NCBI GenBank assembly: GCA_963717525.1
Contig: OY970343.1
Location: 32,001 to 96,000, forward strand
DNA: 64,000 bases
Direction of reading: 5' to 3'
Source: an uncultured Methanoregulaceae archaeon
Lineage (GTDB): Archaea > Halobacteriota > Methanomicrobia > Methanomicrobiales > Methanospirillaceae
Under the pieces are notes generated by a model. That model worked only from the letters and a program-made list of their open reading frames with translations, did not search any database and had not been told where the DNA came from. This document shows positions 1,701 through 25,673 of the stretch, piece by piece; positions within the stretch are counted from its first letter, which is position 1, and each line of letters begins with the position of its first letter. The position numbers and the translations under genes were made by a program.

Positions 1701-2315
1701 TTATCCATGCCGCTCACGGGTATCGATCAGGAACCCCTCATCACCGATCGTGAAAGGCAGCATCTTTTCAGAAAGTAGGGTTCCCCGCATCTTGGGAATA
1801 TTGAGATAACGCTTGAGCTTGTCTCCCTCGGGAACGGTGGTGACCTGAATGACCCCGTCTGCCATCGCATGTAAAAGCGCCTCGTGCCGTTCGGGGAGAA
1901 CACCGCGATCCACAAGCAGGAGGAAAACGCGGCCGTTTTTTGCTGCAGTTATGATGCGGGAGATCCCCTCGCGGAGATCGGAGAGCGGTGTATCGAGGAA
2001 ATAGAGAGAAAACTGGTCAACGATCACCAGATCCCCGTTACCATGGAGGGTGAGAAGATCGAGGAGCGCTCCCGGGGTTGTCCCGTGTATCTCTTCAATA
2101 TGAAATCCCTTTGCGGGTAAAATTCTCAGGAGTTTCATCTCACTGCGGATATCGTCTGAGGGCCGGGGCGTGAGGTAGGAGACGTCCTTTCCGTCAGCTG
2201 CCGTTTCAGCGGCAATATACTGGGCATATACAGATTTGACAAGCCCCGTACCTTCTTCAATCAGGATCACGCTCTTTTCCGGAAAATTATCCATGCCATG
2301 AACGGGTGCCATCAC
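1701..2315 (-). CDS. KaiC/RAD55-like RecA-superfamily ATPase with degenerate Walker A
   Basis: VILIEEGTGLVKS, LVIVDQFS, ADGVI, RYLNIPKMRG, PFTIGDEG are typical of archaeal KaiC-like proteins. Confidence 0.75.
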   Translation of the reverse strand: MMAPVHGMDNFPEKSVILIEEGTGLVKSVYAQYIAAETAADGKDVSYLTPRPSDDIRSEMKLLRILPAKGFHIEEIHGTTPGALLDLLTLHGNGDLVIVDQFSLYFLDTPLSDLREGISRIITAAKNGRVFLLLVDRGVLPERHEALLHAMADGVIQVTTVPEGDKLKRYLNIPKMRGTLLSEKMLPFTIGDEGFLIDTRERHG

Positions 2316-2565
2316 CTATCGTTTGCTTGTTCCCTCTCATAAGTGCTTTCCAGCCCGGTGTTGGAATTCCTATAAATCGGGTCCGCAGAAAAAAGTTTTA
2401 CCCAGGCAAACAAAAAAATTTCCCCTTAATCCCTTATGATACCCCCCAAGTGCCCTTAAAATCATTTATTTTTTACAGAAAGATTATATAATAAATTTAC
2501 CAAATATAGTGTATCCCCCACAGAGATCCACTCCGAACAGGGCGAGTATTTGTAATGCAACCATC

Positions 2566-3015
2566 ATGCAGAAGACCATCCCAGCCCTTTTCAGGCGCAT
2601 CTATGATACGCCGGCATGCGTTGCCATTATCCCGTCATTTGCGGTAATTATCGATTATGCCCTCACCTTTTTTCTCGCGGGAAATACCGGAATGATCCTT
2701 CAGTGGGAGGCAAGCCCTCTCGTACGGTTTGCCGTGGCGCATAACAGTATGGCGATCTATCTACTGGCCATCGTTGTATTCTACTATGTCGCTGCGTACG
2801 CGGTCCTCCACATCCTTCGGCCCACCGCCTATTACCGGTATGGCGTAGGACTGGTGTTACTGGTGAGCCTGACACATGTACTTGGAGGTCTGTCATGGCA
2901 GTTCAAAACTGCAGGGTATTCCAACAGTATTGTGGCCCTCTCATTTCTCTCCATTATTATTGCGATCTGCCTGTTTGGATATACCATCTTCCGGCAGGTT
3001 CATTCCTCAACATGA
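2566..3015 (+). CDS. DUF5658-like membrane protein
   Basis: Four hydrophobic segments and a D-x-x-LT...EASP motif. ATG 2566 preferred over GTG 2509. Confidence 0.55.
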   Translation: MQKTIPALFRRIYDTPACVAIIPSFAVIIDYALTFFLAGNTGMILQWEASPLVRFAVAHNSMAIYLLAIVVFYYVAAYAVLHILRPTAYYRYGVGLVLLVSLTHVLGGLSWQFKTAGYSNSIVALSFLSIIIAICLFGYTIFRQVHSST

Positions 3016-7495: not shown

Positions 7496-7878
7496 ACCTG
7501 GCAGCCTGAACTGTTCCATACATCCAGACTGGAAGACAAACGCAGCCCCCTCCTTCCCGGAACCGGCAAACCACAATGACCACCACACTACTGATAAAAA
7601 CCTTCTCCGGTCTGGAACGCAGCAGTTCCCTACCAAGCCGGGACAAAGATCGACGGAGACCAGTGCGTCCCTATACCCTATTGCGATCACTATATTGAAA
7701 AGCCTTATATCTATATCAAAAACGCTAAAAATATATAGTCCTGGGTCGATACTCTGATTGGTGAATTGACATCTGTGGGGGATGAATGAACTTCACCGCA
7801 AGAACTCCGTGGCAAATCCATTAGTCTCTACAAATTTTTCAAAAATCCCATCCACGAACACCAAAGGTGAAAACAGCA

Positions 7879-9015
7879 ATGTACGCAAACATGAAACGCA
7901 TGAACAATGAGATGGCAGTCTCACCGATTGTTGCGACGCTCGTCCTTATCGTCGTCGCCGTCATCGGTGCAGTTGCCGTAGGTACCATTATGGGTACCTT
8001 CTCAACCCAAGTATCGAAACAGGCATCCGCTTCTCAGGCCGCATCTGCATCATCAACTGAGATTCTCATCGCCGGCTCGACCACGCTCCTCCCGGCTGAG
8101 CTTAACCTCCAGACCGACTACCAGAAGGCCAACCCCGGCTACCAGCTGAACGTCCAGGGTGGCGGCTCGGGCGCCGGTGTGGCATCAGTAGCAGAGGGAA
8201 TCTCTGACATCGGTGCAGCATCCTCGGCAAGCACGATTACAGGCGCTCAGACGGCAAACCCGAACAACCCTGCCTACCAGAACCTCTACTACACCATGAT
8301 CGGTGGCCGTGGCGTCGTCTTCATTCAGGATGCAAGCATGATAGCAGACCCGAGTAATGTTGTTAGCACTGCAGACCTGAACGCTGCATACCTCGATGCA
8401 AGCGGCAACGGCGGCAAGACCACTGCTGTAACTACTAACCTCACCCACATCGGCACGACAATGGAACAGCGCGAAGCAGGTTCCGGCACGATGTCAACCG
8501 CATTCGGCTGGATTGGCGGCAGCGCAAAGGGTAACACATCCACCGGTTACAACAACCTTCCGACCCAGAACGGAAACGCAGCAATGCTCGCAGCAGTCCA
8601 GGCAGGAACCTCGACTGCCCCGGTCATCGGCTTCGTTGACGCAGGCTATGCATTCACCGGCTCAGTGACCAGCAACGTCACCGCATCGGGTATCTCGGTT
8701 ATGGGCGTTGTAGATGGAACTCAGACAGCAGCATATGTTCCGACCCACGCCAACATCAAGGCAGCACTCAAGGACTGGGTCAAGGGCAACTCTCAGGGAA
8801 CCAACTACCCCCAGAAGCTCACCGGCGGTCTCTACTGGATCACCGCGGGAACTGTACCCACCCAGTCGGTCAACGGTATTATCACAGCCCCAGGTACCAG
8901 CGCAGCCAGCTCAGTTGTTACCAACCTGATCACCTTCGCCCAGTCCCCGGGTGAGGCAACCGCGTTCAACAACGCCGGCATGTACTCGCTCTACGACTTT
9001 GCACCGACCAGCTAA
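7879..9015 (+). CDS. pstS: PstS-like phosphate-binding protein with class III (type IV pilin) signal peptide
   Basis: KRMNNEMA|VSPIVATLVLIVVAVIGAVAVG pilin N-terminus; PBP motifs AGSTT, GGGSGAG, DIGAASS, REAGSGT. GGTGA RBS at 7866. Confidence 0.85.
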   Translation: MYANMKRMNNEMAVSPIVATLVLIVVAVIGAVAVGTIMGTFSTQVSKQASASQAASASSTEILIAGSTTLLPAELNLQTDYQKANPGYQLNVQGGGSGAGVASVAEGISDIGAASSASTITGAQTANPNNPAYQNLYYTMIGGRGVVFIQDASMIADPSNVVSTADLNAAYLDASGNGGKTTAVTTNLTHIGTTMEQREAGSGTMSTAFGWIGGSAKGNTSTGYNNLPTQNGNAAMLAAVQAGTSTAPVIGFVDAGYAFTGSVTSNVTASGISVMGVVDGTQTAAYVPTHANIKAALKDWVKGNSQGTNYPQKLTGGLYWITAGTVPTQSVNGIITAPGTSAASSVVTNLITFAQSPGEATAFNNAGMYSLYDFAPTS

Positions 9016-9034
9016 GCTAACAACTCAAACCACA

Positions 9035-9048
9035 TTTTTTTCTTTTTT
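9035..9048 (+). terminator. oligo-T tract after pstS (possible intra-operon terminator)
   Basis: TTTTTTTCTTTTTT between the pstS stop and the pstC start. Confidence 0.5.
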
Positions 9049-9051
9049 ACA

Positions 9052-9972
9052 ATGAACGAAAAGACCGATCTCCACGAAGTACTCTTTCTTTCCTGTGCCG
9101 TGGTGACCGCGTTAAGTGTCATCGTAATCATCGGGTACATTATTTACGCTGCCTCGCCGGTTCTCGAGCGCGAGGGGCTCGGTTTTATCTTCGGATCGAC
9201 GTGGGACTATACATCTCACCAGTTTGGTATCTGGTCGTTTATCGTCGCAACTCTGATGGTAACCGTCGCCACTATTGTACTCGCTGTCCCGCTGGGCCTT
9301 GCAACCGCACTCTTTCTCTCGGAATGGGCCCCGCCGTGGCTCGACCAAGTGCTCAGTACGCTCATCGAACTGCTGGTGGGAATACCGTCTGTCGTATACG
9401 GTATCTTCGGCTTTTTTGTCCTGCGGAGTTATTTCAATGATTTCATCAACCCGTTCATAGGAAATACACTTGGTTTCATTCCCCTCTTCAGGTATGACAA
9501 TAACAACGGGATAGGCTTCCCGCTGGCAGCCACTGTCCTTGCCATCATGATCCTGCCGACCATCGTCGCCCTCTCGCGGGAGGCGATGCGCGGGGTGCCC
9601 GTGGAGCTGCGTGAAGGGTCGGCTGCGCTTGGATCGACGCAGTGGGAGACCATCCGGCACCTTGTTCTTCCGGCATCCCTCTCCGGGATCATCACCGGCC
9701 TGATCCTGGGCATCATGCGTGCGATGGGAGAGACCATGGCAGTCGCGATGCTTGTAGGTAATGTGGGCGCCACCCCGGCATCGTTTTTCAATCTGGGTGA
9801 ACCGATGACCGCCAAAATTCTCCTGGATATCGGATATTATATCGTAGAGCCCGAAGGCCGGAGCGCGCTCTTTGCCATCGGTGCTGTCCTTATGGTCATG
9901 GAGATAGGGTTTGTGATCGCGATCCATATCATCAGTGACCGGCTGAAAAAACGAATGGAAGGCGCCACGTGA
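9052..9972 (+). CDS. pstC: phosphate ABC transporter permease PstC
   Basis: ELLVGIPSVVYG, LAIMILPTI, EGSAALGST, RAMGETMAV. Confidence 0.93.
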   Translation: MNEKTDLHEVLFLSCAVVTALSVIVIIGYIIYAASPVLEREGLGFIFGSTWDYTSHQFGIWSFIVATLMVTVATIVLAVPLGLATALFLSEWAPPWLDQVLSTLIELLVGIPSVVYGIFGFFVLRSYFNDFINPFIGNTLGFIPLFRYDNNNGIGFPLAATVLAIMILPTIVALSREAMRGVPVELREGSAALGSTQWETIRHLVLPASLSGIITGLILGIMRAMGETMAVAMLVGNVGATPASFFNLGEPMTAKILLDIGYYIVEPEGRSALFAIGAVLMVMEIGFVIAIHIISDRLKKRMEGAT

Positions 9973-12640
9973 ACCTCCGGAATCTCAAAGGGACAATCAT
10001 GATGGCAATCTGCGGAGCTGCCGCGCTCTTTGCCGCAGCCATGCTTCTCTATATCCTCGTGGTTATCTTCCTGAAAGGAGTGGCATCCCTGAACCCGCAT
10101 TTCATCCTGTTCTCTGAGATCAATACCGGGTTGGGGCTCGGGACCGGGGTCGGGAACGCCATTGCCGGCACTATTCTTCTCGCGGTCATATCCACTATCC
10201 TTGCAATCCCCTTGGGAGTGGGGACTGCAATCTATCTCAGGAAATATGCTTCCGACAACCAGTTAACCCGGTTCCTGCGGCTGATGATCGAGGTTCTCTC
10301 AGGCACCCCTTCGATCGTACTGGGGATTTTCGGCGTCGCCGTCCTTGTTATCTATCTCAAGCCCATTACCGGGGGAGAATCCCTCATCGCAGGAGCCATT
10401 GCACTTGGCGTCCTGATCATCCCGGTGATCGAACGCTCAACAGAGGAGGCACTTTCGCGCGTGCCCTGCGAACTGGAAGAGGGCAGCTATGCACTCGGCG
10501 CAACCAAATGGCTAACAGTCCGGAATATCGTCATTCCTTATGCCCTTTCGGGTATCATCGTCGGGGCCATCCTTGGATTCGGCAGGGCTGCGGAAGAATC
10601 GGCCGTCGTTCTCCTGACCGCGGGATATTCCCAGTACATGCCGCAATTCAGGATCGCAGTCAACCCGAACTTTTTACTCGGGATTAAGATATATCCGCTC
10701 AATGATCTCGTCGGATCACTACCGGTATTCCTGTACACATCCTATGAAAATTCCAATGTCTTTCCCGTATCCTCCATTTTTGCTGCCGGCTTTATCCTCA
10801 TCGTCATCGTATTGTTCATCAATCTCTCGGCAAAGGCCATCCTTTTCTATGCCACAGCAAAGACACATGGGCATCAAGGTGACCTTCTGTCTTCGTTTTG
10901 CGGATCTATTTCAGACCGGTTCCTCGGGAAACAACCCAAAGCATTACCTTCATATTCCGATGTAATAGATCCTGCACCCCCGGATGAAAAAAACACGAAA
11001 AAAGAAGATCCTGTTAGTGCCTCAATGCCTCCTCAAATTCGCCCGGTAGACCTTTCGTGGATAGACACAGATCCGTTAATTGATGAACCATCTTCGGGGG
11101 AGACAGAAACTCCCGAGCCCGCCCCACCTGCTGCCGAACCCCCAAAACCAGCCCCCAGGCCAACAAGAATAACGATCCGCTCGGTTGGGACCGGCATTGT
11201 ACGGCTCATTAACGCAATCCGCGAAAAAGTTCGCATGGTGGTACATGACAACCTGCAAAAGAAAACACCTGTAGATGCAGCTAAGGTTCGTGGCACTGCG
11301 GATCGTGCTGGATCTCTTCGGAAGACACAGTCGTTCAGTCCCTGGATGATAATAGGCCCAGTCCGCTCCTTCCTTCTTACGTTTGCCCCATTCGCACTGG
11401 TCGCAGTAATCCTGCTGGTTCTCACCATCATGCTGCCCCCCCTCTCACCAGTTGGATCGAATGGGCCGGCCTGCTGACCGTTCCCATCATGGCCCTCATC
11501 CTGTGTTTGATCGGGACGGTAAGTGCCCTTTTTCTGGTGCGGAACAGTACGCTCTTCCTGCTTCGGCACCAGAAGGGCCGAATGGGGAACCGGCGTGCCG
11601 AATTCGCCGGGATCGCGGTGGGATTCTGCATGGTTCTTATCGGGGCATTCATCTTTTCCGCCCATATCTTTTCACCCGTTCCATCACTCCAGTCCCCGGG
11701 TTCAGAAGCACCCGCAGAAAATGGAATATTCAGTTACTTCACACCGTCAGGAAACGGTGGGATATCTGCAATCATGTCATTGATACAGGACAACAGCCTG
11801 TTAGGCTTCCTCCACGGATCAGGATCTGCAGCCGCCAACTCCACAGCCTCATCCAACCGGGGCGCACAACTGGCAGCGTTTCTGGCTTCAGAAGAAACAC
11901 CGGCCGAAGTAACCCCCCAGAGCACCCTGGCAGCACTCCAGCCCTCTCCTGCTCCGTCTTCCTCTGCCCAAGCCATCTCCTCAGTCCCTCCCTCCGTTCC
12001 GGTCAAAAACGCACTCGATCTCGGCGAGTCCTATTGGTACGGCGATAACAGCCGCCCATGCCTTGCCACCGTCTACAATGTAACCGTCCTCCCGTTCTAT
12101 TTCTACTGGGATATGGACTGGAACCGGTTCGTTCAGGTAACACCGGTTTCGAGCGGCGACACGTTCCTTGTTGTTTTCATCCGCATCGAAGACACCGGAA
12201 ATATGAGTGCCATCGTGCCGCCGGCAACCAGTTTTGTCGTCACCTATAACGGCCAAACCTATTCCAATGAGCCGTATTTCGATCAGTCAGTCCTTGACCC
12301 GGACGAAATTACTTATTATACCGCAAATTTCAACGCCCTGCCCTACCAGTGGATCCGGGAGATCGGGCAGCAGAAGCGGGATTATGCCTTCCTGACCGGC
12401 TACAATGTCTTCGGGCAGAACCAGACCGTGATCTCTAACTATACCAACAGCGCAAACGCCCCCCCGACACCGCCCGATACGAATGGCCAGGGGTATTTCA
12501 TCAAGCCCGGGCGCAGCAACGCCATCGACGGCTACCTTATCTACGAAGTCCCCGATGCTGTTGCAGCGGATCTCCGGGACACGTATGTCCAGGTCTCCTT
12601 CAACAGTTTCAGCGCGACGCAATGGAGGCTGGGAAAATGA
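9969..12640 (+). CDS. pstA: PstA permease with long C-terminal extension (linker, 3 TM, extracellular DUF4352-like domain); frameshift at ~11470
   Basis: GTPSIVLG, EEGSYALGAT, GRAAEESA. Adding one C at GCC(C)TG joins ...GPA to LLTVPIMALILCL of the 11489-12640 frame. Confidence 0.75.
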
Positions 12641-12936
12641 GAATGCCGGGCTTTCTTATAAAAAGTTCACTGGTCCGCTGAAATGAGCTGGTGGCATCGA
12701 AATTGTGGATATGATGCAGCCTCTTGGACGAACCACCCGATGTAGAAACATAGAACTCTATATTCTCAATTCAAAAGATATATTTTAACCAGAAGCGTAA
12801 TCATTTGACAAATACCGGATTTTCAAAAACTGCATATGAGATCATGGGGGTTAACGTATGGCACATTGGGAACAGTATTTCACGCAAGGGATGGTTCCGA
12901 TTCCATGCGGGATGGTCTGTTTTTGAGGATCCACCA

Positions 12937-14984
12937 ATGAAAATAAAAATTCCCTTCGACAGGAAAAGGATCCGCTTACCCCGTATCAAAAAACAGGCCC
13001 GTATCCCTCTTGTTATCGGAGCGATTATCATCCTCTTCGCACTCGGTACGTATTTCCATCTCCTGCCGAGTATCGGGAGTCTTGCGCACCTGTTCGAACC
13101 CAAGGTTACCACAGATCCGCTTCAGTCCCTGGGAGATGCAGCTACGCCTCTCAGCGCAGACCTTGCAAAACCCCTTATCGCTGACTTTCTGGCTTCTCCC
13201 GGGTACCAGTCCGATCCGCTCTCCGTGCAGTTCTTCGATATGAGCCGGGTACTCCGGGGACATGGCACTGGGATTTTGGCGACAACGTAACTTCGGATCT
13301 CCAGAATCCGGTTCATGAGTACGCGGGCCCGGACATATATAATGCCACCCTGACCGTAAGCCGGGGAGATGGCACCCAAAAAACAATAACCGCATATGAT
13401 GTGCTGGATACCCGGCAGGCCGCTGAATCTCAGATGCTGGTCGATACCATCCGCACCGGAAGCATAAAAAAAGGTTCGTTTTTATCCTTTGTATCGACAG
13501 CCAGCAACTCTTCTGTGACCGTGAACGGTGCCCGGGTGCAGTTGCCGGCAGGATCGCTGGTGAAGATCCGTGCCAATGCGGACACCACCGGGACCCTCTC
13601 CCTGCGCGGCAGCAACATTCTGGGCTGTAGTCTTGCCGATGCTACCCTCTTTATGAACGGCACACAGGCTGCCCGGGGCATTTTTTCCGACTGCTTCATC
13701 CCGTCAGTACAGAGTTATCATGCAAACCTCACTTTTGCTATCGAGCCCACCTACGGGGAGGTCCGGGAGATCTTGGTAAACGGCAACGAAGTCCTTGCCG
13801 GGCCACAGAATTCCTACATCGTCGTTTCTGAGGATTCGCAAAATCCCGGAAAGGATCTGACAGTTGTTGCAGTCCCCGGATACTATGAGGGGAGTGCGTC
13901 CCGTTACTCCATATCGCCCGCATTGATCGCCAGTTTCGTCACTGCTTCTTCCTTAGAAGGCAGCGCCCCCCTCAATGTCTCGTTTCTGGATCGCTCGGCC
14001 GGCTCACCGGATTCATGGTTATGGGATTTCGGGGATGGCACCAGTTCCCAGGAACAGAATCCTACACACCTTTATGGCTCCCCGGGATCCTACGATGTCT
14101 CTCTGACCGTGAAAAACGAGGACCAGACCGATAGCACCGCACTCCAGAACGCGGTAATTGTCACGCCTCCCCGGGTCGTCGCTAACTTTACTGCTAGTCC
14201 GCTCACCGGCCCGGAGCCCCTCACCGTCAGGTTTACCGATCAATCCACCGGGTTCCCGACATCGTGGAACTGGACCTTCCAGGAAACCTCGTGGAATATG
14301 ACCTTCTATAACACCGGCAGCACTATTTATGACACCTCTACAAACCAGAATCCTACAGAAACCTTCACAGATCCTGGCACCTATGACGTCTGGTTGACGG
14401 TCAACAACGTCTACGGCAGCAGCGACATAATCAGGCCAGGGTATGTCGTCGTTACTTCACCCTACAATATTTCGACCGATGATATCCTTGTCAAGACCGG
14501 AAAACCCGGCTATATCGAACAGGATTCAAGCGTCCAGTTTATCGTGAGCAACACACCGGCGGCCATCACCATCAACGGGACCTACTATGATCTGCCGAAA
14601 GGTGCGGTTGTACGGATCGTAGCCGGGAGCGACCAGCAAGGCGATATCACCATCGACAGCAACCGGATCCTCAAATTTGCCTTCCCGGACATGGCAGTCT
14701 ACATGAACGGTAATCTCCTTGCCGGTGGGAGGATCGACAGCATCTATATCCCGTACATGATGCAGTTCCAGACCGGCCTGACCTATTATTTCTCGCCCAA
14801 TTCGGCCCAGACATATGAGGCCATCAATGGGCAGCAGTACCTTTCCGATTTGGACAATGCCTGGATCCGTATCTACGACCTAGGTATAAACAAACAGGGA
14901 ACACTCTCCCTGATTTCAGGCAAAAACACAACCTATATCGAAGGGGCCGATAACCAGACGGTTCAGGACTGGATTCTCCAGTGA
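12937..14984 (+). CDS. membrane-anchored multi-PKD surface protein; frameshift at ~13249
   Basis: TM anchor. Restoring one G gives SRGTPGTWHWDFGDN...QNPVHEY, in frame with 13401-14984. Further PKD units (WLWDFGDG, WNWTF). Confidence 0.8.
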
Positions 14985-15214
14985 GATGGATCCGCCTAAG
15001 ACTATGCTAGGAAAGTTCTGTCAGCAATGTCGGGCTTTCGCAAAGAGTGGTGTGAACGCAGCCACATTTTTCGATCGAATATACATCCGATCCCTGCATA
15101 CGCTTTTGGATGAATTTATCAGAAACAAACGTTTGAACCGGAACTGTGCGATGCACGTGATACCGTACAGGAAAACCTTCCATGAAACCGGAATTTAAAA
15201 AAATGTAATAAAAA

Positions 15215-15853
15215 TCACTGGCGCTGCTGCAGGAGATGCGCCATTGCCGTAATATTTGAGAGCGCGTCATCCCCATCTTCAAGAGAGGATAATCCCAAGG
15301 CCTTCGCATCCATGGCGGCAGTGCGCAGCGAGTCATCCCGGAAATCCGGATCATCTACGGACAGATATCCGGTGAGATCCCGGTTATAATCAACGAAGTG
15401 CTGTTGTGCGTTGCTCATATCGATGGAATAGATTTTCATCTCCTGTGCCAGCAGGCCGGTGAGCTGGAGGGAGTCCGGATCATTCCCGAACGTAAGGGAT
15501 GAGGTGGCGGATGAAAACGTATCGGTTGCAGATCCCAGTACGGCACTAGCAGCACCCCATTGGCCGATTGCCTGCTGGTCAGCTGCCACATCTCGCCGCA
15601 GTGCAACTGGATCGGAAGAGGGGGCGGCAGTGTCGCGGTTATAAGCATCAACGGTATTTCCGATTTGGGTGAGAGCGGAACTGACCTGGCTGTAATAGGT
15701 ACCCTGCTGATCTGCCCAGGAATTATAGTCCTGGATGACTACTGTTGTATTATGGGTATCACTCATCCGGGGAGTGGTACACCCGGCGGCTAACAGTGTG
15801 CACCCGACCAGAAAAAGGAGCAGGAAAAACCCACTGGATCGTTCCATCATCAC
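15215..15853 (-). CDS. predicted lipoprotein, helical
   Basis: Hydrophobic signal ending in an LAAGC lipobox. Confidence 0.65.
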   Translation of the reverse strand: MMMERSSGFFLLLFLVGCTLLAAGCTTPRMSDTHNTTVVIQDYNSWADQQGTYYSQVSSALTQIGNTVDAYNRDTAAPSSDPVALRRDVAADQQAIGQWGAASAVLGSATDTFSSATSSLTFGNDPDSLQLTGLLAQEMKIYSIDMSNAQQHFVDYNRDLTGYLSVDDPDFRDDSLRTAAMDAKALGLSSLEDGDDALSNITAMAHLLQQRQ

Positions 15854-15987
15854 TAACTATAGGGATGGCTTTTTCTTCAATCTTTCGTCTATTTTTAAAA
15901 TTTATTTCTTACTCGCAAAGACCATACCCATAAATAATGATAATCGATAATAGAATAATTTAAGACTATAGTAAATCAAATAAAAAT

Positions 15988-17319
15988 ATGTATAAACTGG
16001 GAACGGTTATCTGTCTCTTCGTCGTTATGCTGGTCTGGGCATGCGGCTGTACTTCCGTTCCCGCGTCAGGTACCGCACAGGCGGGACCGTCTGTGGCGAC
16101 ACCCACGCTGCCGGCGATGTATGTTGCCGGGGAAACGACACTCACGGCAGGGAGTGCCACGATCACATCGACGCCGATACCGGCGAACGCAACAGCCGCA
16201 AATATCGTTGGCGCACAAGTGAACACAACCCTCACGGAAGTTACGATAGCCTGCACGGGGCAAACCTGTACCAGCGGCACAACCAATAGTACCATATCCG
16301 GTTCCAGCACTACCACGGTGAGTGCCCCGGTGAGCGCCATTGCCGCCAACGTGACCATGGCATATGTCAAACAAAACCCGGACGTTGCAATCCAGTTTAC
16401 CGACTCCTCTTCAAACACCCCTCCGTATTCATGGATGTGGAGCTGGCGGCCGGCGGCAAACCTGACCTACGAGAGTGACCCGAGCATCGTTCTCGTCTTT
16501 AACCAGTATGGGAACTACATGGTAACCCGGAGTGTTTCAAACAGCGTGGGAACCTCAAGTTCATCAACAAATGTCTCCGTCTGTCCCCTTGTAGCCTCCT
16601 TTACCACAAACCAGACCACCGGCCCGGTACCACTCTCCGTCAGGTTCACCGACACTTCGACCGATCAGCCCGTCTCTTGGCTCTGGAACTTCGGCGATGG
16701 GAGTGCCTCGACCTTACAGAACCCGGTGCATACGTTTACCGTATCGGGTACGTTTACCGTGAGACTTGATGCAACAAACAGCCTGGGCTCCTGCTGGAAT
16801 ACGACCGGGATCTCGGTATCATCACTGGCAGCATCTTTTACCCAGAATCAGACTACCGGCCTTGTCCCGCTCGCTGTCCAGTTCACCGACACTTCGACCG
16901 ATCAGCCCGTCTCCTGGCTCTGGAACTTCGGTGATGGGAGTGCCTCGACCTTACAGAACCCGGTGCACACATATACGACTGCAGGTGTATACCTGGTCAA
17001 CCTCAGCGCATCCAACGGGTATGACGGCATGATGAGTGCGCAGCCAGTAAAGATCACGATCTGGTCCCTTCCCACCGCTTCTTTCACAGCAAGCCCGGTA
17101 ACCGGGATGCCGGGAACCTCCGTGCTTTTCAGTGACCAGAGCACCGGCTTTCCCTCCCCAGCATTCTGGTATTGGGACTTTGGCGACGGGTACACCAGCA
17201 GCCAGCAGAATCCCTCGCACCAGTATGTTAATGCCGGGACATACAATGTCAGCCATTCAGCAACAAATGCGCAGGGCATCACGTGGCTGAACAAGACCGC
17301 TTACATCACCATATCATGA
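15988..17319 (+). CDS. PKD-repeat lipoprotein (about 4 PKD domains, Thr-rich stalk)
   Basis: WACGC lipobox; repeated FTDTST..P.SWLWNFGDG..STLQNP.H. Confidence 0.85.
   Translation: MYKLGTVICLFVVMLVWACGCTSVPASGTAQAGPSVATPTLPAMYVAGETTLTAGSATITSTPIPANATAANIVGAQVNTTLTEVTIACTGQTCTSGTTNSTISGSSTTTVSAPVSAIAANVTMAYVKQNPDVAIQFTDSSSNTPPYSWMWSWRPAANLTYESDPSIVLVFNQYGNYMVTRSVSNSVGTSSSSTNVSVCPLVASFTTNQTTGPVPLSVRFTDTSTDQPVSWLWNFGDGSASTLQNPVHTFTVSGTFTVRLDATNSLGSCWNTTGISVSSLAASFTQNQTTGLVPLAVQFTDTSTDQPVSWLWNFGDGSASTLQNPVHTYTTAGVYLVNLSASNGYDGMMSAQPVKITIWSLPTASFTASPVTGMPGTSVLFSDQSTGFPSPAFWYWDFGDGYTSSQQNPSHQYVNAGTYNVSHSATNAQGITWLNKTAYITIS
16644..16967 (+). repeat. 87-bp direct repeat (2 copies, 237-bp period) encoding the PKD core
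   Basis: 16644-16730 vs 16881-16967 differ at two synonymous positions. Confidence 0.85.
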
Positions 17320-19490
17320 CACCCAAACCCTTGTCAGGCCGGCTTTCATCATTGTTCAGCACCGGAGGAGAGCCAGACGCTTCCCGACCGGACACTGATG
17401 CAGATGATACGCTATCCTCTGACGGCGTGCAAAAAGAAGATCACGGAACCGACGAACCTGACCTTGGAGACAAAGGGATTGGCCGCCAGCCGGAAAACCG
17501 GCGACCCGGTTCACGGATACAGAAGTTTTTCCTGTACTTCATTGAACCGGAACTGAAGCCGGAACAGCTACCTGATGTCTCCCGTACACAGGTAAAGAAA
17601 CCACGGGAAAAAAAGCCTTCCGTTCCTGTCAAAGAGAGGATCAGGGAACAGCTGGCCTCCCTGAGAAAATTGGGCCTGAAAATATCCCTCTATTTCATAG
17701 AACCCGTTGAAGAGGAGACAACGGGCATACAGGCCGAAGAGGTGCAGGCACTTCCGGAAACTGCAGCTGAAACCCTCCCTTCCATACCGGATCAGGCCAA
17801 CCTTGCGCTGTCTGTTACCGATGTGGTTCAGGCACCTGACAAACAGGTTCCCCCTCCCTCATTCATGCAGAGAATCCGGTCACTTTTGGCGTCCCCGGAA
17901 CAGAAGGAGATCCAGACGCTCGATTTCGATCCGGGTGTCCTTGACACCCCCTCCCTTGAAGGATCGCTGCGCGATGTCAATATCACCTACCTGATCGATC
18001 CCCCTTACCAATACGTCCATATCGAGTACAACAAAAAAGAGGGGTCTTTGATATATGATGTAGTCGAGCCGCAGCTCTCCGAGGATGAGAAGGTCGCTCT
18101 CGATATTATCGAGCGGGCCTTTGAGAAACTGGTGAGCACCAACCTCGAAATTATTGAAGGTGATCGGCGGACTGAATACCTCCGGGAACGGTTCTACTCA
18201 CTGGTCAACATCTTCGGGCTCAAACTCTCGGAACACCAGAAAGAGAGGATGTTTTTTACCCTCAAAAGGCAGTATCTCGGCTACAGCCGCATCGACACCC
18301 TGATGAAGGACAAGTATATCGAGGATATCAGCTGCAACGGTTCGGATATCTTCCTGTACGTCCAGCACCGTATCTATGGCTCAATCCGTACCAATGTGAA
18401 ATTCGGGGAGGTCGAGCTCAACAACTTCGTCCTGAAGCTGGCACAAGTCGGCGGCAGGCATATCTCGCTCCTCCAGCCCATCCGTGACGTTTCGCTGCCG
18501 GACGGGAGCCGGGGGAACCTGACCCTCGGCGGAGAGGTAACCAGAAAAGGATCGACATTTACCATCCGTAAATTCCGTGCAAACCCCATCTCGCCCATCG
18601 AAATGATGGACTACCACTCTGTCGATGCGATGGAGCTTGCATACCTATGGATCCTGATGGAATACAAGCGCTCGATCCTCGTCTCAGGGGGGACGGCGAC
18701 CGGGAAGACCACGTTTTTAAACGTGTTGTGCAGTTTCATTCCTCCCGAGTACAAGATCGTCTCCATCGAGGACACAGCAGAACTTAACCTAATGCACCCT
18801 AACTGGATTCAGTCCATCACCCGGGCCGGGTTCGGTAGTACCAGCGGTGGAGAGTCTGTATCTGGGTTGAGTGGTGTGTCGGCAAAAACCCCCGGGGATA
18901 TCTCGCTCTACGACCTGCTCGTCGCGGCACTGCGACAGCGCCCCGAGTTCATCATCGTAGGGGAGGTGCGGGGGAGCGAAGCGTTTACGCTCTTCCAGGC
19001 AATTGCCGTAGGGCATGCGGCTCTTGGGACTATCCACGCCGGTTCCATGGACGAGCTTCTCGCCCGCGTGGAGTCTAACCCTATGAATGTCCCACGAAGC
19101 CTCTTCTCCAACCTCGATGTGGTGATCTTTCCCATGCATATCAAGAAAGGGGAGCGGAGCATGCGGCGTTTGTCAAATATCATCGAGATGCTGGAACTCG
19201 ACCGGGATTCAGGAGATCTTATCACGAATACGGCTTTCAAATGGCTCCCTGATGTCGATGAGTTCCAGTTCCAGGGCCGGAGTTTCCTCTTTGACAAGAT
19301 CCGGGACACCCACGGGGTAAGTAAAGATCTCCTCAACCAGGAGCTCAAAGACCGGACAGCATTCCTGCGTGGCCTGCAGAAAGCAGGGATCCGGGAGTAT
19401 AATGCGGTGACTGAACAGATCCGGGCATATTACCGGGATAAACCGGCTGTGATGAAGCAGGTCGAGGGTTCATCGGAAATTGTAGGGTAG
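17316..19490 (+). CDS. type IV pilus / type II-IV secretion ATPase (VirB11/FlaI/PilB-like) with long disordered N-terminus
   Basis: IEDISCNG, TFTIRKF, Walker A GGTATGKTT, SIEDTAEL, LRQRPEFIIVGEVRG, GHAALGTIHA. ATGA overlap with the upstream stop. Confidence 0.92.
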   Translation: MTPKPLSGRLSSLFSTGGEPDASRPDTDADDTLSSDGVQKEDHGTDEPDLGDKGIGRQPENRRPGSRIQKFFLYFIEPELKPEQLPDVSRTQVKKPREKKPSVPVKERIREQLASLRKLGLKISLYFIEPVEEETTGIQAEEVQALPETAAETLPSIPDQANLALSVTDVVQAPDKQVPPPSFMQRIRSLLASPEQKEIQTLDFDPGVLDTPSLEGSLRDVNITYLIDPPYQYVHIEYNKKEGSLIYDVVEPQLSEDEKVALDIIERAFEKLVSTNLEIIEGDRRTEYLRERFYSLVNIFGLKLSEHQKERMFFTLKRQYLGYSRIDTLMKDKYIEDISCNGSDIFLYVQHRIYGSIRTNVKFGEVELNNFVLKLAQVGGRHISLLQPIRDVSLPDGSRGNLTLGGEVTRKGSTFTIRKFRANPISPIEMMDYHSVDAMELAYLWILMEYKRSILVSGGTATGKTTFLNVLCSFIPPEYKIVSIEDTAELNLMHPNWIQSITRAGFGSTSGGESVSGLSGVSAKTPGDISLYDLLVAALRQRPEFIIVGEVRGSEAFTLFQAIAVGHAALGTIHAGSMDELLARVESNPMNVPRSLFSNLDVVIFPMHIKKGERSMRRLSNIIEMLELDRDSGDLITNTAFKWLPDVDEFQFQGRSFLFDKIRDTHGVSKDLLNQELKDRTAFLRGLQKAGIREYNAVTEQIRAYYRDKPAVMKQVEGSSEIVG

Positions 19491-19644
19491 TGCCCTTTTT
19501 TGGGACTCGTTTTCAATTTTTTCTCGCCTTGCTGAAAGAACGGTTCATGCTCTCAAAAAGGAGAGAAGAAGTTTTGCCCTTCTTTTCCCGTGTGGCTTGA
19601 CCGATACGCAACAGGTGCAATCCCTTATGTACGATCTTAATTAA

Positions 19645-20809
19645 TTAGGAGGTATTCGCAACCGCCAGCTCGATGGGAGATAATTGCCCTGAGACGATCT
19701 TAATCGTGCCGTTACCGCTCATGACCTCTACACTGTCGTTTCCATTGGGATCTGTCATTCCCTCATACTTACTCAGAGTCAAATCCCCGAACTGGTTGTA
19801 CTCCACGATATAGTTCACGGATAAGTTGGATACGCCAATACCGTGAATATCTTTGATGGTGACATTCACCCACCCCGGTACAACAGGAACGGCATACAAA
19901 TTGGCCGGGGGAAAACTGCGGATCGGCTGGAATACTGATATAATTTGATGTTGCCATCATACCTGTGTTGTCGGTGACCGTGAGGTTCACGCAGAACGGC
20001 CCTATACTTGGAGGGTTATACCGGGTAACTTTCCCTGTTGAATAATTTGCGGGGTTTGTAAGGGTGCCGCCACAGTTACCTCCTGCAGGAGACGCATCCA
20101 CGATGCTCCAGTTCCATAGATTAATGGTGTTATCCGAGGTGGATTGCGAACCATCCAGTACCAGCACATCGCGTTGCAATTCTCCGAGATTTTCTGTAGC
20201 GATACTGGACTGGATAACAGGGTTAGGGGATTTATAGGTTTGTTCGAAGAAGTTATTGAGTGATGTCATGATCATGATCTTGATCTGAGCATTGGTGCCG
20301 ATGAACAATGGGGAATTTGGAAAGCCATTGGTAAAATTGATCTGAATTTCCTGACTCTGGGTTCCGGGGATGTCCAGGTTGAAGGTACCCAGAGAGGATT
20401 GGTTATACGTTTGTTGTTGCGGTTGGCCATTGAGTGTTGCATTGATCACGGTAATATTACTGACATATTGGGCGTTGCTTGATCCGGAGCTTGATACGGC
20501 AATGGCGACAATATCAACATCGTCAGTATTCAGGTTCACCAGGTGAAGAGTAACCGAACTCCAGTTTCCCGAATTTGTAATGTTATACGGGGTCTGGTTC
20601 CAGACGGTAGGATCGTTTTGGAAACTCACGCTGGAGAACTGGACACTCTCGGCTTTTACCGCCGCGAGATGTGATTGCTGAGTCATCTCGGCTTTCTGCA
20701 TCTGCGAGACCATGAGAGCAAGGGCGGCAGCGGCAGTCACTGTGATCAGGATCAGGAGGAGGGTCCCGATGATAACAGAAACACCCTGATCATTGTGCGG
20801 CCGGGTCAT
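19645..20809 (-). CDS. large type IV pilin/adhesin with PKD-like domain; frameshift at ~19905
   Basis: HNDQG|VSVIIGTLLLILITV class III signal; LVLDGSQS...WNWSI...VNLTVTDNTG. The C-terminus continues in the 19645-19899 frame. Confidence 0.8.
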
Positions 20810-21277: not shown

Positions 21278-21658
21278 TCATTTTGGCTTGCACGTTGTAT
21301 GATGCGATGTGCTGAACGCTTCTTTCAATATTGGGTAAATCTCCGTCTTCCAGTTAGATTGGTTGGAGGAAAAATACATGGGCCTTCCGCAGGCAGGACA
21401 AGGAACATTGAACCGTCTTTCAGTTGCCAATACTTTGTTTAGTTCTTCAAGCTCGTGTATTTTTTTTACCAGTGCAGATGTTTCCCGATTGGGATCCATC
21501 ATGTCGTGAACAAAATGAGTCATCCACGTTGAAAGAGGTATGTCGGAAGCCTTTATGATCGCGTCCAGCTTTTCCTTATCTCCTTTTTTCAGTCTGAATG
21601 TAATTGAAGGATTATTCATACGATATTTTTTTTGCGACGGGAACTCCTTTCCTTTCAT
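21278..21658 (-). CDS. ribbon-helix-helix-like DNA-binding protein with C-terminal Zn finger
   Basis: PSITFRLKKGDKEKLDAII...LSTWM (RHH-like); CPACG...HTTC. Confidence 0.55.
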   Translation of the reverse strand: MKGKEFPSQKKYRMNNPSITFRLKKGDKEKLDAIIKASDIPLSTWMTHFVHDMMDPNRETSALVKKIHELEELNKVLATERRFNVPCPACGRPMYFSSNQSNWKTEIYPILKEAFSTSHHTTCKPK

Positions 21659-21697
21659 AATCAGGCTCCGGAAATCAGACAACCGATCTGTATCCAG

Positions 21698-21781
21698 CAA
21701 TCTATACAGAAATCATTACGACAGTCGACAGGACAATCTGTATGGCAATCTGTATGGCAATCTGAATGGAAATCGATATAT
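21698..21781. repeat. degenerate 12-bp tandem array (7 units, core CAATCTGTATGG)
   Basis: caatctatacag aaatcattacga cagtcgacagga caatctgtatgg caatctgtatgg caatctgaatgg aaatcgatatat. Confidence 0.75.
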
Positions 21782-22029
21782 GACAATCTGCACCCGGACA
21801 GCGCGTATTTGGAGCGCTCACTGATGACACAGGTATAGACCTGAAGTACTTCGGTAATGACCACTGTTGTCCGTAGTGCTCCTATGGTCAAAATTGCACG
21901 AGAAAGACTCGGATCTCTACGTCCGGATATGGTCCTGAACCGTTCTATACGAATACTATGCAATACCAGATTTCGGATTTTTTCTTCTAACATTGTCAAA
22001 CCACTTTCAATGGGTAAAAGAGGAATATT

Positions 22030-22578
22030 CTACGGTCCCTCACTGGTCTGGTCTGTTTGACTTGCACGGCGAGGAGTACGCCTTCCTGACAGAGTACATG
22101 ATTTTCCCCCCTTTTCCACCGTGGTATCCCTTTTGATCGGGGTATCCTGGTTTTCTGCCGATGGGTCAGCGACGGAACATCGTGGATCATTACATTTCTT
22201 TAGACGACGGAACCGTTCCTTCGTATCTTTAAGGTCAGACGGTTCCTTTTGGACGACAGGAATTTCGTCACCCCTTAGATTAGGGTTACCAGTGGAGTCA
22301 AGGACTTTAAAGAAATCCTGTCCGTCGATTTGTACCCTGCGTACGTTCACCGTTTCGTACTCCCCGTGTACGTCATCGCTGGAACCATCAGAAGACGGCT
22401 TTACTGTCTCTGGCATTGAGTGAACAGGTTGGGTTGTATTTGGGGATGCTTCCGAATCCGCTCCCTTTTCCGGAGAACCTGACTTCGGGATTATCTGACA
22501 GCTCAACATGGTTGGATCTTTCGGGTCCAACGGTTTACACCGAAGTGAAATTTCCTTGTTGTCTTGGTTTTCATCCAT
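22030..22578 (-). CDS. hypothetical protein
   Basis: 182-aa ORF with a GAGGT RBS upstream. Confidence 0.5.
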   Translation of the reverse strand: MDENQDNKEISLRCKPLDPKDPTMLSCQIIPKSGSPEKGADSEASPNTTQPVHSMPETVKPSSDGSSDDVHGEYETVNVRRVQIDGQDFFKVLDSTGNPNLRGDEIPVVQKEPSDLKDTKERFRRLKKCNDPRCSVADPSAENQDTPIKRDTTVEKGGKSCTLSGRRTPRRASQTDQTSEGP

Positions 22579-22590
22579 GATGCTTACCTC

Positions 22591-22842
22591 TTATGGAGCT
22601 GGGGGGAGTGTGGATTCGGGTGTCGTCATTAGATACTGATCAGAAATTCTCCAGCGTACAGGCCAATGCTTGTCAAGCTTCACGAGGACACCGTCGGCGC
22701 GCAGTTTCGCAAACGCTTTCGGATCGATATGGCATTCCTCAAGAGCCTGCCGGAAATAAAATTCCGAACTACCGAATCGTTGTTTAAGTGCCGCAAGTGT
22801 CTCCCTGGACAAAAATGCGAATCCACGTAGCGCTGTTGACAT
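22591..22842 (-). CDS. small hypothetical protein, possibly wHTH
   Basis: MSTALRGF...AFAKLRADGVLVKL...RWRI resembles a winged-helix end. Confidence 0.4.
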   Translation of the reverse strand: MSTALRGFAFLSRETLAALKQRFGSSEFYFRQALEECHIDPKAFAKLRADGVLVKLDKHWPVRWRISDQYLMTTPESTLPPAP

Positions 22843-23210
22843 ATCTACTTGCCCCCAGCTCGCTTCGATGACTTTCTGCCGGCGGCAGAAGGGGGTGTGG
22901 TTTCGATAAGGTCCCACCGGCCGTCGCGGATGTATTGCTCCGCGATCATGCGGTGTATTTCGGGAAGGTGTGCCATTTGTTCCCGGCTTACTTTCCTTCG
23001 CGGAATGCACTTACCCAATACAATACACCGGAAGACAATCGTTGTGTATAATTTAAAGGCTGTTCTGGTCGCTATTTGACCAATGCGTTCGTTATAGCGG
23101 TTTTATCTAAACAGAACAGTGAAAACCTGTATTGTGTACTAAACAGGTTTAAATAAAATCTGTTGGCTACGTATCATTTGACTGAGCAGATTGGATCTGG
23201 AGATGTTCGT

Positions 23211-24482
23211 ATGACAAAGGATGGAACTAATGCCCCCTCTTGTAACACCAATGCAAAGCAAATTGGGTCTGAAAGGGCACGCGCGCCGACCGAAACGCCC
23301 CAAAAGGATTATTTTGAAGTTTATATTGAGATCATCACCACCCTTCTGAAGAATGAAGTACGTTCCGAAACTGAAATTGCCGACGATTGTGGTTATGCAA
23401 AAGAGGGTAAGGACAAATGTGCACACGTTCATCGCCAAATTAACAAACTCGTTTCGAAGTGGAATTACATTGAGTACAGTGACGGGCCACGACCGGGGTA
23501 TCGGATCCGACGGGATCTTGAAACAATCTGCCATATTTACGATGATAAACACTATGAATCGATCCGCCCGGATTTTCAGGAGTCCCCCTGGTTAACGGAT
23601 CTCATCAATGGGATATACCTGCCGGAGTACCGGGGTGATGGCGAATTTCTTGAAGACCTGAAAAAGATGCTGAAAACATCCCGGTGGATGTTTGAATGGT
23701 ATCTCCGGAATACTACGCATGCTCATCACACCGCAACCCTTGGCGAGATCCTGGGGCCTTCCATCCCCGTGGAAAAGACGCCGGGCATCAACGAGCCCCT
23801 CCTTGAATGGCTGACGAGAAAATGTGTATTCTACGACCAGTTTATTTCCTGCATGTGGTTAGAGTATGACGGAGCGTTGAAGTCAAAGACCCTCCCGGAA
23901 GAGACTCTTCGGATCTTCGATGAGATGAAGCAGAAGTCGGCACAGGGTAAACTCAAGGCAATAAATTACATCCTGTCGTTTGCGATCACGCAGAATCTTG
24001 CACAGTGCGCCGATGTCATAAGGGATAACGATGGTCAGGTCCCCCTGTTCTTCGAAGATCTCGTGAAAAATTTCAATAAAATTGCCGAGCATATGAGCTC
24101 GGACAATATAGATCAGGAGTCTCTTATGATGGCGGCAAAGGAAATGGGCGACCTCTATAATAGAATAAGTAAGTCGTTAGGTGACAGCTCACCCCTTAAT
24201 TCGGTATCAGGAGTGATCAAAGGTATCGGGCCGAAGTCGAAAATTATCATGGAACAATCTGTAAAAGGGAGTGAGAAAAAATTAGGTGCCGGCAACAAGT
24301 TTCTGGCGGGCGAGACCCATAATCATCTTGTATTCCGGCAACTTCTCGATATCCCGTCTCAGCCGCTCCACGCTCAACCGTGCCTCTTCGGTCAACGGCT
24401 CTCCGCAGGTCGAGCAGAACTCGAAGGTCGGCGGATTGACGGTGTTGCAGTTGGCGCACTGCCGGATCTCCATGGCGACTGA
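23211..24482 (+). CDS. hypothetical protein with N-terminal HTH-like region (3' end uncertain)
   Basis: SETEIADDCG...VHRQINKL HTH-like. The last ~200 nt overlap the integrase antisense. Confidence 0.55.
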   Translation: MTKDGTNAPSCNTNAKQIGSERARAPTETPQKDYFEVYIEIITTLLKNEVRSETEIADDCGYAKEGKDKCAHVHRQINKLVSKWNYIEYSDGPRPGYRIRRDLETICHIYDDKHYESIRPDFQESPWLTDLINGIYLPEYRGDGEFLEDLKKMLKTSRWMFEWYLRNTTHAHHTATLGEILGPSIPVEKTPGINEPLLEWLTRKCVFYDQFISCMWLEYDGALKSKTLPEETLRIFDEMKQKSAQGKLKAINYILSFAITQNLAQCADVIRDNDGQVPLFFEDLVKNFNKIAEHMSSDNIDQESLMMAAKEMGDLYNRISKSLGDSSPLNSVSGVIKGIGPKSKIIMEQSVKGSEKKLGAGNKFLAGETHNHLVFRQLLDIPSQPLHAQPCLFGQRLSAGRAELEGRRIDGVAVGALPDLHGD

Positions 24483-25505
24483 TCGCTTCTCCTCCGATCG
24501 CCGGATACCGTGTTTTTCGAGAACCTCGTTATCAGTGTCGTTGTCGACCAGATGGAGGTAGCTTGAGAACATCAGGGTATCGAGGTTGCCCCACATCGTC
24601 TTCTTGACGATCGACTCGCTGTATCCCTGCCGGATCATGGCGGTGACGCGGCTGTGCCGGAACAGGTGCGGCGTGACTTTTTTCCGGATACCCGCCCGGC
24701 GAGCTATCTTCTTGAGTTGCACGGCGATGGCAGCATACTGGACCGGCAGCCGCCGGTTGGATACGAAGACCAAGGCGTCAGGCGTGACCTGGAATGGAAA
24801 ATCGTTCTTCCACTGTATGAGGTACTGGGTTGCCGACACGAGCCGGATGTACCGCGGGGCCCCGGTCTTCTCGTCGACGTTGATGACTGTGCCGTAATCG
24901 TCGAATTTTACCTGCGCCCAAGTCAGCTGGCCTAACTCCTGGACCCTGAAACCTCCTTCATATAACGTCGAAATAATCGCCCTGTCCCGGGACGTCTGGC
25001 ACGCGTCGATCATGGCCCGGACCTCGTCTTCTGTCAGCATCTGGCCGGCGGTCTTGGTCATCCGGTCCGCTTTGGGAGCCCTAATCCCCTCAATCTTGTC
25101 GGCCGGCACGGACGAATATCCGTTCGCCCTAAGCCAGCGGAAGAACCGCTTGAGCAGGGTCAGGTGGTCTTTCAGGGTGTTCTGTTTATAGGGTATCCCC
25201 ATATCGCCGTGCCGCGCCTCCCGCAGAGCCTCGATCCCCCGATAGAGGTCGGCCACGGTGTCTGTTCGGAACGGCCCGATGTACTGCCGCCACGACACCA
25301 GGATATAGGTGAGTTTGTTGGCCCGCGAGACCCCGATGCCACCGGTAACCTTGATCTCCGCAATAAAGTCCCGGATCAACCGGGCATCATCGGCGGTGAG
25401 CTGGCCGGCCTGGAGGGCATTATCGATCGAATGCTCGGCATATACACTCTTCGCGTTATGAAACGGCCGTGCGTGCCGGTTAGGTGCCTGTTGAGTGCGT
25501 ATCAT
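24282..25505 (-). CDS. tyrosine integrase with C-terminal Zn ribbon
   Basis: Catalytic R (EGGFRVQE), K (EKTG), HLFRHSR, W, Y (SSYLHL); CANC...CSTC. Confidence 0.92.
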   Translation of the reverse strand: MIRTQQAPNRHARPFHNAKSVYAEHSIDNALQAGQLTADDARLIRDFIAEIKVTGGIGVSRANKLTYILVSWRQYIGPFRTDTVADLYRGIEALREARHGDMGIPYKQNTLKDHLTLLKRFFRWLRANGYSSVPADKIEGIRAPKADRMTKTAGQMLTEDEVRAMIDACQTSRDRAIISTLYEGGFRVQELGQLTWAQVKFDDYGTVINVDEKTGAPRYIRLVSATQYLIQWKNDFPFQVTPDALVFVSNRRLPVQYAAIAVQLKKIARRAGIRKKVTPHLFRHSRVTAMIRQGYSESIVKKTMWGNLDTLMFSSYLHLVDNDTDNEVLEKHGIRRSEEKRSVAMEIRQCANCNTVNPPTFEFCSTCGEPLTEEARLSVERLRRDIEKLPEYKMIMGLARQKLVAGT

Positions 25506-25601
25506 TGTCCCGGCACTTCGGTTACCGAAGTTAGGGAAAAACTTATCCTGAGAACCTGCCTGAGAAACGAATTTTGCAGGGAATTCAACCTGCGCGATAG
25601 A

Positions 25602-25673
25602 AGCCGCCGGAGGGACTTGAACCCTCGACCTGCTGATTACGAATCAGCCGCTATGCCGCTAAGCCACGGCGGC
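25602..25673 (-). tRNA. tRNA-Thr(CGT)
   Basis: Reverse complement GCCGCCGTGGCTTAGCGGCATAGCGGCTGATTCGTAATCAGCAGGTCGAGGGTTCAAGTCCCTCCGGCGGCT folds as a cloverleaf with anticodon CGT. No intron, no encoded CCA. Confidence 0.95.

Follow-up and report, generated by a model that had tools for sequence, protein, structure and literature searches.

Several described systems resemble the locus reported here, in which a phosphate-type binding protein with a pilin signal (pilin-PstS) is encoded together with its own permease and a type IV filament (T4F) ATPase. The locus lies in a stretch of 64,000 nucleotides (the window, G000:32001-96000) from an uncultured Methanoregulaceae archaeon whose genome (G000) forms one contig of 2.29 Mb; the closest named relatives of the window proteins are Methanoregula and Methanoregulaceae records. 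Coordinates without a prefix are those of the window. The bindosome of Saccharolobus solfataricus (BasABCEF with GlcS, AraS and TreS; T4F subsystem 4I) shares with this locus a class III-signal binding protein linked to an ABC permease. It has a sugar pocket, whereas the pocket here is of a predicted phosphate type; Bas serves binding proteins encoded elsewhere, whereas here machine, binding protein and permease stand in one cluster. Bas has one platform gene and three small pilins (BasABC), whereas our locus has one 389-aa pilin, genes for KaiC-like and PhoU proteins, and a platform pair of which one member ends in an Ig-like tail; our ATPase scores far under the BasE cut-off (NF053672, 194 against 1000). 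The system works like a bindosome and is not a member of the Bas family. Nor is it an archaellum (FlaI/FlaJ with archaellins and FlaF/G/H): the ATPase is under the FlaI cut-off (NF058587, 374 against 550), and a separate archaellum-type locus is found at G000:730-737 kb. The hallmarks of archaeal type IV filaments are present, namely an ATPase with intact motifs, a TadC/PilC platform, a class III pilin and a prepilin peptidase in the genome.

With the canonical PstSCAB-PhoU system (and Clostridium perfringens PBP-1) the locus has in common the fold, nine pocket positions, the PstC/PstA families and the association with PhoU. It differs in carrying a pilin helix in place of the lipobox, in having a core without pstB, and in coexisting with a canonical operon. 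In Pseudomonas aeruginosa, the accessible part of the report (PMC2242829) describes appendages that display PstS when phosphate is limiting. PstS is reported there as a component exposed by way of the type II secretion system Hxc, whereas here PstS itself bears the pilin helix.

In the portions of Makarova 2016 and of Sivabalasarma and Albers 2026 that were available, the ATPases of same-arrangement loci in M. acetivorans and Methanolobus psychrophilus are assigned to T4F clade (system) 2, and arCOG09549 is given as a system 2 accessory; by this published label alone the window ATPase would be placed in clade 2 as well. System 2 is described there with one platform gene, in contrast to the two found here, and neither main text, as far as available, mentions phosphate or PstS. 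Table S4 of the 2016 paper (PMC4858521) lists a pstS-pstC-pstA locus in M. acetivorans, Methanolobus psychrophilus and Methanoplanus petrolearius, which the accessible text does not discuss; PstS is not marked as a type IV pilus protein in the part of the table available, and in M. acetivorans the peptidase and PhoU adjoin the same operon (supplement, in part). The pilin of M. acetivorans C2A is entered as MA3100; counting genes from there, MA3093 would be its pstS and MA3096 its ATPase gene. These three published loci may overlap our samples and were not counted as independent. A 2026 study (PMC13705601, available in part) predicts 4397 class III-signal binding proteins, with the same architecture and the same proposed scavenging role as pilin-PstS; it proposes widespread bindosomes, calls the tie of binding proteins to specific T4F loci unproven, and in the text available (figures aside) contains neither 'phosphate' nor 'PstS'. 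Pilin-signal binding proteins are thus already in print as a general idea, and a phosphate system with a dedicated machine is not described in the literature searched, which left out most subscription papers. The M. mazei phosphate-starvation transcriptome (PMC6864096), whose available text reports two pstSCAB-phoU operons, was not used as evidence. The physical nature of the bindosome has long been open, and one reason is that the genes for its binding proteins and for its machine are not together; with binding protein, permease and machine in one conserved cluster that has a clear inducing cue and is also listed for M. acetivorans, a methanogen kept in the laboratory, the question becomes directly testable.

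A divergent PstS with a pilin signal

The pilin-PstS gene (7879..9015, plus strand) encodes a class III signal, a 42-residue helix and a PstS fold with a predicted phosphate pocket. As the first-pass annotation of this stretch had read it, the open reading frame (ORF) begins with KRMNNEMA|VSPIVATLVL and has no lipobox; the protein scores over the PBP_like_2 cut-off. Its N-terminus falls just under the cut-off of TIGR02537 (18.7 bits against 20), and Pfam Pilin_N was not listed for it in the Pfam scan of the window proteins. The FlaFind pattern has Lys or Arg at residue -2; pilin-PstS has Met, and this position is variable in other pilins of G000 as well. The class III motif is found in 114 of the 120 best homologs and in 91 of 133 new representatives obtained by profile search. 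Across 109 homolog rows, mature residues 1-29 of the helix are 98% identical and the head 45%, which is more conservation than a plain anchor should need. The ordinary PstS of the same genomes uses a lipobox.

In a structure model (mean pLDDT 91), a helix at residues 3-44 is followed by the PstS fold, and the best Foldseek matches are phosphate-binding proteins, ranking above ModA. Nine phosphate-contact residues are known for a solved PstS, C. perfringens PBP-1 (PMC5381212). By order and spacing, that is by sequence match rather than three-dimensional superposition, these correspond to S54, T55, T56, S84, S102, R185, S189, G190 and T191; all nine positions are kept, one of them conservatively, and each is retained in 98-107 of the 109 rows. 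Scores for the PstS families are far under cut-off (TIGR02136, 43 against 207; TIGR00975, 29 against 205), and on sequence grounds we regard pilin-PstS as a divergent subfamily of PstS. The predicted pocket is of the phosphate type, and arsenate or another oxyanion may be the ligand instead.

Certain other PstS-like proteins (L096, L097, L098, L035-L041) form a sister group; they have a plain transmembrane (TM) anchor and lack the pilin motif. Three widened loci of this group adjoin histidine kinases or response regulators, and the proteins are perhaps phosphate sensors.

Linkage to a filament machine across genomes

Linkage between pilin-PstS homologs and this ATPase clade (defined as matches at E < 1e-150) had been put forward as the check on the initial proposal, and the two do occur together and adjacent across families and orders. 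Among 301 genomes of the order (Methanomicrobiales), pilin-PstS was detected in 24 and the ATPase clade in 27, with both in 23 and neither in 273. The two genes are less than 11 kb apart in 20 genomes and 33 kb apart in G247; contig ends fit adjacency in G031 and G049. These are plain counts rather than a statistical test, since kin are not independent. Any PstS match at all was found in 51 genomes of the order, and the weaker matches that were checked lack the pilin motif. The distribution is patchy, covering five of the six families of the order and 10 of 48 genomes in the genus. Outside the order, 20 of 333 genomes of the phylum had a pilin-type match, with ATPase-tadB-tadC just downstream in 19 of them; the order pstS-pstC-pstA-ATPase-tadB-tadC was found in 17 of the 20, and 14 of the 19 loci have a PhoU-family gene within the stretch examined. 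The exception among the 20, G355, combines a contig edge with an altered pocket.

The compact form of the locus is tadB-tadC-kaiC-membrane gene-pstS-pstC-pstA-ATPase-pilin, and nearly all complete loci keep the second pilin and the two platform genes. Judging from these comparisons, the ATPase, TadB, TadC, the KaiC-like protein and the second pilin appear to be inherited together with pilin-headed PstS and its own PstC/PstA. The machine also follows the pilin-headed protein where the permease is missing: in G411 a pilin-headed binding protein with an altered pocket stands directly before the ATPase, with no permease between them. This genome has further pilin-headed copies; one of them is a fusion with a second binding domain and is found next to a FecCD permease. 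In G467 and G496 related machines are paired with divergent pilin-headed proteins. Pilin-headed binding proteins with altered pockets were seen at L142:5031-7106, L142:18325-19305, L145, L151:1205-2425 and L152; one is fused to Peripla_BP_2 beside a FecCD permease, and another is near ModABC-like and FeoB-like genes. The pilin-headed scaffold may have been reused for other solutes.

The genes of the machine and those of the permease appear to have different histories. In G277, G017 and G226 the ATPase is 92-94% identical to that of the window and PstC merely 49-53%; in G143 and G297 the figures are 76-77% for the ATPase and 80-83% for PstC. The ATPase and TadB trees agree with each other; the PstC and PstS-head trees (the latter by a quick method, 16 of 23 rows) also agree with each other, and they conflict with the former pair. 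In approximately unbiased (AU) tests with 15 rows, the clade taken from the ATPase tree is rejected by PstC (p 1.5e-6) and the clade taken from the PstC tree is rejected by the ATPase (p 1.4e-41); each gene was tested against a group that the tree of the other had supplied, and the branch of G277 is long. Agreement between head and PstC would be expected if the head docks on its own permease. From these trees we infer that the PstS head and PstC form a matched pair, swapped as a unit within a stable, conserved machine, which is newly found here; their joint exchange suggests that pilin-PstS still delivers to its permease.

Absence of pstB, phoU, a TadC/FlaJ platform and a prepilin peptidase, as initially annotated, is true of the window itself; a PhoU regulator, tadB and tadC are found shortly before its left end. 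The platform pair (two PF00482 genes, G000:26783-29062) is about 3 kb away and has no ATPase of its own, and its TadC ends in an Ig-like C-terminal domain. Five secretion-type ATPases were found in G000, four with platform genes directly behind them and that of the window without. The other four loci have no pst genes in their clusters; one of them, at 243 kb, is separated from the canonical operon by about 12 kb. Beside the platform pair is a MazE-PhoU regulator (G000:23532-24563), 97% identical to its counterpart at the canonical pst operon. That operon (G000:226-231 kb) contains a lipobox PstS and the sole pstB over cut-off (226.6 kb), which is not within the pilin-PstS operon, and the prepilin peptidase (PF06847) is at G000:233 kb; in G496 and M. 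acetivorans the peptidase is beside the system. The parts that were to be sought elsewhere in the genome have thus been located. The system would be an add-on scavenger beside the ordinary Pst importer, not a replacement for it.

The ATPase gene occupies the usual position of pstB in the 17 loci outside the order, which would fit a pilus motor working in place of PstB, with extension and retraction themselves driving phosphate through PstC/PstA. We consider this very improbable and reject it as the main explanation, given that G000 and all 10 of the single-contig genomes tested have a canonical pstB at another site, and that the coupling loops for an ABC ATPase are kept. A second pstB adjoins the locus in G229, G283 and G288. 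This second copy speaks against another alternative, in which PstS-PstC-PstA would report outside phosphate to PhoU and the KaiC-like protein and so switch filament assembly, uptake being minor. A sensor would agree with a core locus without pstB and with the conservation of the KaiC-like and PhoU genes; histidine kinases are frequent neighbours of the system, and the three non-pilin PstS-like relatives noted above adjoin kinases or response regulators. However, the EAA loops are intact and sensing leaves the pilin helix on PstS unexplained, and we find it quite improbable.

Filament assembly and its alternatives

We incline slightly to the reading that this is a phosphate-starvation type IV filament system, with PstS as main subunit and the three-domain pilin as initiator or tip, feeding PstC/PstA with a borrowed PstB. 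The PhoU-family regulator would switch the island on when phosphate is scarce, and the shared prepilin peptidase would cut PstS at A|VSP. The ATPase and TadB/TadC would then lift PstS subunits from the membrane, the three-domain pilin serving as initiator or tip, so that processed PstS would be assembled into a short pilus or pseudopilus capturing phosphate at the cell surface. Phosphate-loaded heads would return or relay to the membrane and dock on the cognate PstC/PstA, with transport driven by PstB borrowed from the canonical operon. Were PstS a filament subunit, nutrient capture would be a further direct function of type IV filaments besides motility, adhesion, DNA uptake and secretion, and would help explain the phosphorus supply of methanogens in phosphate-poor soils and bogs. 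A bolder form, tentative and rather doubtful, is a dynamic pilus with a solute-binding major subunit, which would extend past the S-layer, load phosphate (perhaps from mineral or organic surfaces), retract and hand loaded subunits to the matched permease; exchangeable head-permease cassettes would retune it, and elsewhere retarget it to other solutes. What held of the original suggestion of a methanogen counterpart to the bindosome is the idea of a type IV filament machine devoted to a PstS with a pilin signal, on the strength of the conserved linkage; the ATPase is not BasE, and the arguments from the T-tract and the PKD proteins fell.

Several observations weigh against a PstS filament. Four genomes positive for the ATPase have no visible pilin-PstS (the ATPase is at or near contig ends in these), no ATPase was seen in G059 (an assembly of 210 contigs) or in G355, and in G619 related ATPases occur but no pilin-binding protein is visible. 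The locus has just two pilin-signal genes, and about ten others in G000 could supply a shaft. The helix is linear in the structure model at low confidence only (pLDDT 49-62). A crude volume estimate, which assumes a rise of 5-5.5 Å, gives a homopolymer with 320-residue heads a width of about 12-14 nm. Heads that have to open and close would be crowded in it, so that a polymer that is short or mixed seems more plausible than one that is both long and pure. The accessible part of the Sulfolobus work (PMC3047682) reports the bindosome as no traditional filament, with binding-protein complexes forming without BasEF. A motif built from six canonical pst promoters of other genomes shrank to a TATATA-like AT-rich pattern, on a poorly matched background. 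Finally, the annotated oligo-T tract downstream of PstS is present (T7-C-T6, 9035..9048, plus strand), and a T5+ tract follows 40 of 43 pilin-PstS genes, compared with 382 of 1752 long ORFs of G000; it also follows 6 of 7 canonical lipoprotein pstS genes. The tract, likely a leaky terminator ordinary for pst operons, is therefore real but not diagnostic, and we rejected it as the mark of excess PstS or of a major subunit that it had been taken for.

In an alternative reading no true pilus is built: the machine would position small oligomers of PstS beneath or within the S-layer, from where they would relay phosphate to PstC/PstA, as proposed for BasEF. Such positioning accounts equally well for all the linkage and conservation data, agrees with the published behaviour of the Sulfolobus bindosome (PMC3047682, as far as available) and has no crowding problem, and the Ig-like C-terminal domain of TadC could brace against the envelope. 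We nevertheless rate it as unlikely: nearly all complete loci keep a pair of platform genes and, as a second pilin, a three-domain protein of their own, as in real pilus makers, and the near-invariant PstS helix suits helical packing.

The cluster also contains surface proteins with PKD repeats. Both members of the annotated pair are present: a membrane-anchored protein (PKD1, 12937..14984, plus strand) and a lipoprotein-like one (PKD2, 15988..17319, plus strand), separated by a lipoprotein-like ORF of no assigned family on the minus strand (15215..15853) that is accessory at the genus level. We rejected the PKD adhesins as core components, since PKD genes are absent from most loci, including the compact loci of other genera; together with the long PstA they occur mainly in the 11 closest loci. 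These proteins and the Ig-rich pilin of the locus would nonetheless suit a co-regulated adhesion pilus built from other pilins under phosphate starvation, in which PstS would be a membrane-anchored monomer sharing the regulon; many small pilins are encoded elsewhere in G000, and the coupling loops of PstC/PstA are normal. We consider this improbable, as the ordinary PstS of the same genomes is anchored by a lipobox, the 98% conservation is unexpected of a plain anchor, most loci have no PKD genes, and pilin-headed binding proteins accompany the machine even in genomes whose permease is missing or of another kind (G411, G467, G496).

Neighbouring genes, expression signals and the surrounding region

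The type IV filament assembly ATPase (17316..19490, plus strand; PF00437 over cut-off, PF23989) has a long acidic N-terminal region and keeps Walker A, Asp box, Walker B and His box. As annotated from the sequence, it is of the VirB11/FlaI type (T2SSE family) and coupled to a PKD protein, its ATG at 17316 overlapping the stop of PKD2. The second pilin-signal protein is also real, with its strand corrected: the gene runs on the minus strand from 20809 to 19645, convergent with the ATPase gene. It encodes about 389 aa, with a pilin helix (TIGR02537 over cut-off) and three predicted beta-sandwich domains. A fold search returned generic Ig/FN3 arrays at low TM-scores and no specific fold match, and on the modelled architecture the protein is likely a minor, tip or initiator pilin.

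The annotated pstC and extended pstA downstream of pilin-PstS were borne out by NCBIfam. PstC (9052..9972, plus strand; TIGR02138 over cut-off) has an intact EAA coupling loop. PstA (9969..12640, plus strand; TIGR00974 over cut-off) is a fusion of about 890 aa, extended by a linker, three further predicted TM helices and a C-terminal domain of no assigned family, for which an Atlas search gave leads below 0.9 only. Upstream, a core gene on the minus strand (1701..2315; PF06745), present in nearly every complete related locus, encodes a KaiC/FlaH-like single-domain protein with a degenerate Walker A. A small hydrophobic membrane protein (2509..3015, plus strand), conserved upstream of pstS, is a frequent companion. 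It is DUF5658-like (Atlas lead at 0.89, 15% of members) and probably arCOG09548, a label taken from gene position in a published table. DUF5658 membrane genes recur beside the system, at 3581-3985 of the window and as look-alikes in G406, G468 and G362.

Three genes are broken in the assembly: pstA at 11463, PKD1 at 13246 and the second pilin at 19906. The contigs of all four runs compared, three of which may be the source of this DNA, carry 4, 1 and 2 extra letters at these positions respectively. In relatives, the loci holding both pieces have a single ORF in 10 of 11 (pstA), 11 of 11 (PKD1) and 16 of 16 cases (second pilin). The frame breaks are assembly errors, and we rejected pseudogenes at this locus: pstA includes the 383-aa ORF at 11489, the PKD1 gene comprises both the ORF at 12937 and that at 13401, and the second pilin continues in another frame. 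A similar irregularity was seen in the canonical pstS (G000:C1:229312-229440, L002), which reads through a 3' hairpin and T6 tract, probably by an assembly slip at the stop codon.

A likely promoter of the pilin-PstS gene (7665..7745, plus strand) contains CTATA-type repeats and a TATA-like box at 7731-7738, and similar AT-rich tracts precede its relatives. In a scan with the TATATA-like motif, promoters of the locus rank 4, 8 and 10 among the top 30 peaks and others lower, the background being poorly matched; palindromes inflate a simple count of CTATRK. A hairpin with a K-turn-like internal loop, read by eye, is predicted in the 5' leader (7760..7797, plus strand). A pattern search recovered it behind the TATA-like box in each of the 20 loci searched. 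Taken by itself, the G000 hairpin lacks significance (z 0.1), and z is under -2 in 11 of 38; covariation is weak (13 of 500 shuffles, on 15 of the 20 aligned, picked by stem pattern). The internal loop reads as a standard K-turn, a possible L7Ae site, and L025 and L026 have a three-way variant look. An Rfam scan returned tRNA only. By a rough codon index, pilin-PstS ranks 107 of 1480 in G000 and the second pilin 1273; PstS is above PstC in 35 of 40 loci, above the second pilin in 28 of 34 and above the ATPase in only 25 of 39, kin again not being independent.

Directly after the second pilin (21278-25673), small unassigned ORFs are found with an integrase (24282-25505) that adjoins tRNA-Thr(CGT) (25602-25673); a quick search for an att repeat near the integrase and tRNA found none. 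In G406 a polyphosphate kinase and an exopolyphosphatase-like gene follow the system (L141:16431-19765). The region G000:C1:17000-53000 (L001 and window 1-21000) contains a histidine phosphatase, a glycosyltransferase cassette, a second PhoU regulator and a low-molecular-weight (LMW) phosphatase/ArsC-like gene, and is possibly a phosphate-starvation island. Ten of the genome's top 23 AT-rich motif peaks fall in this region.

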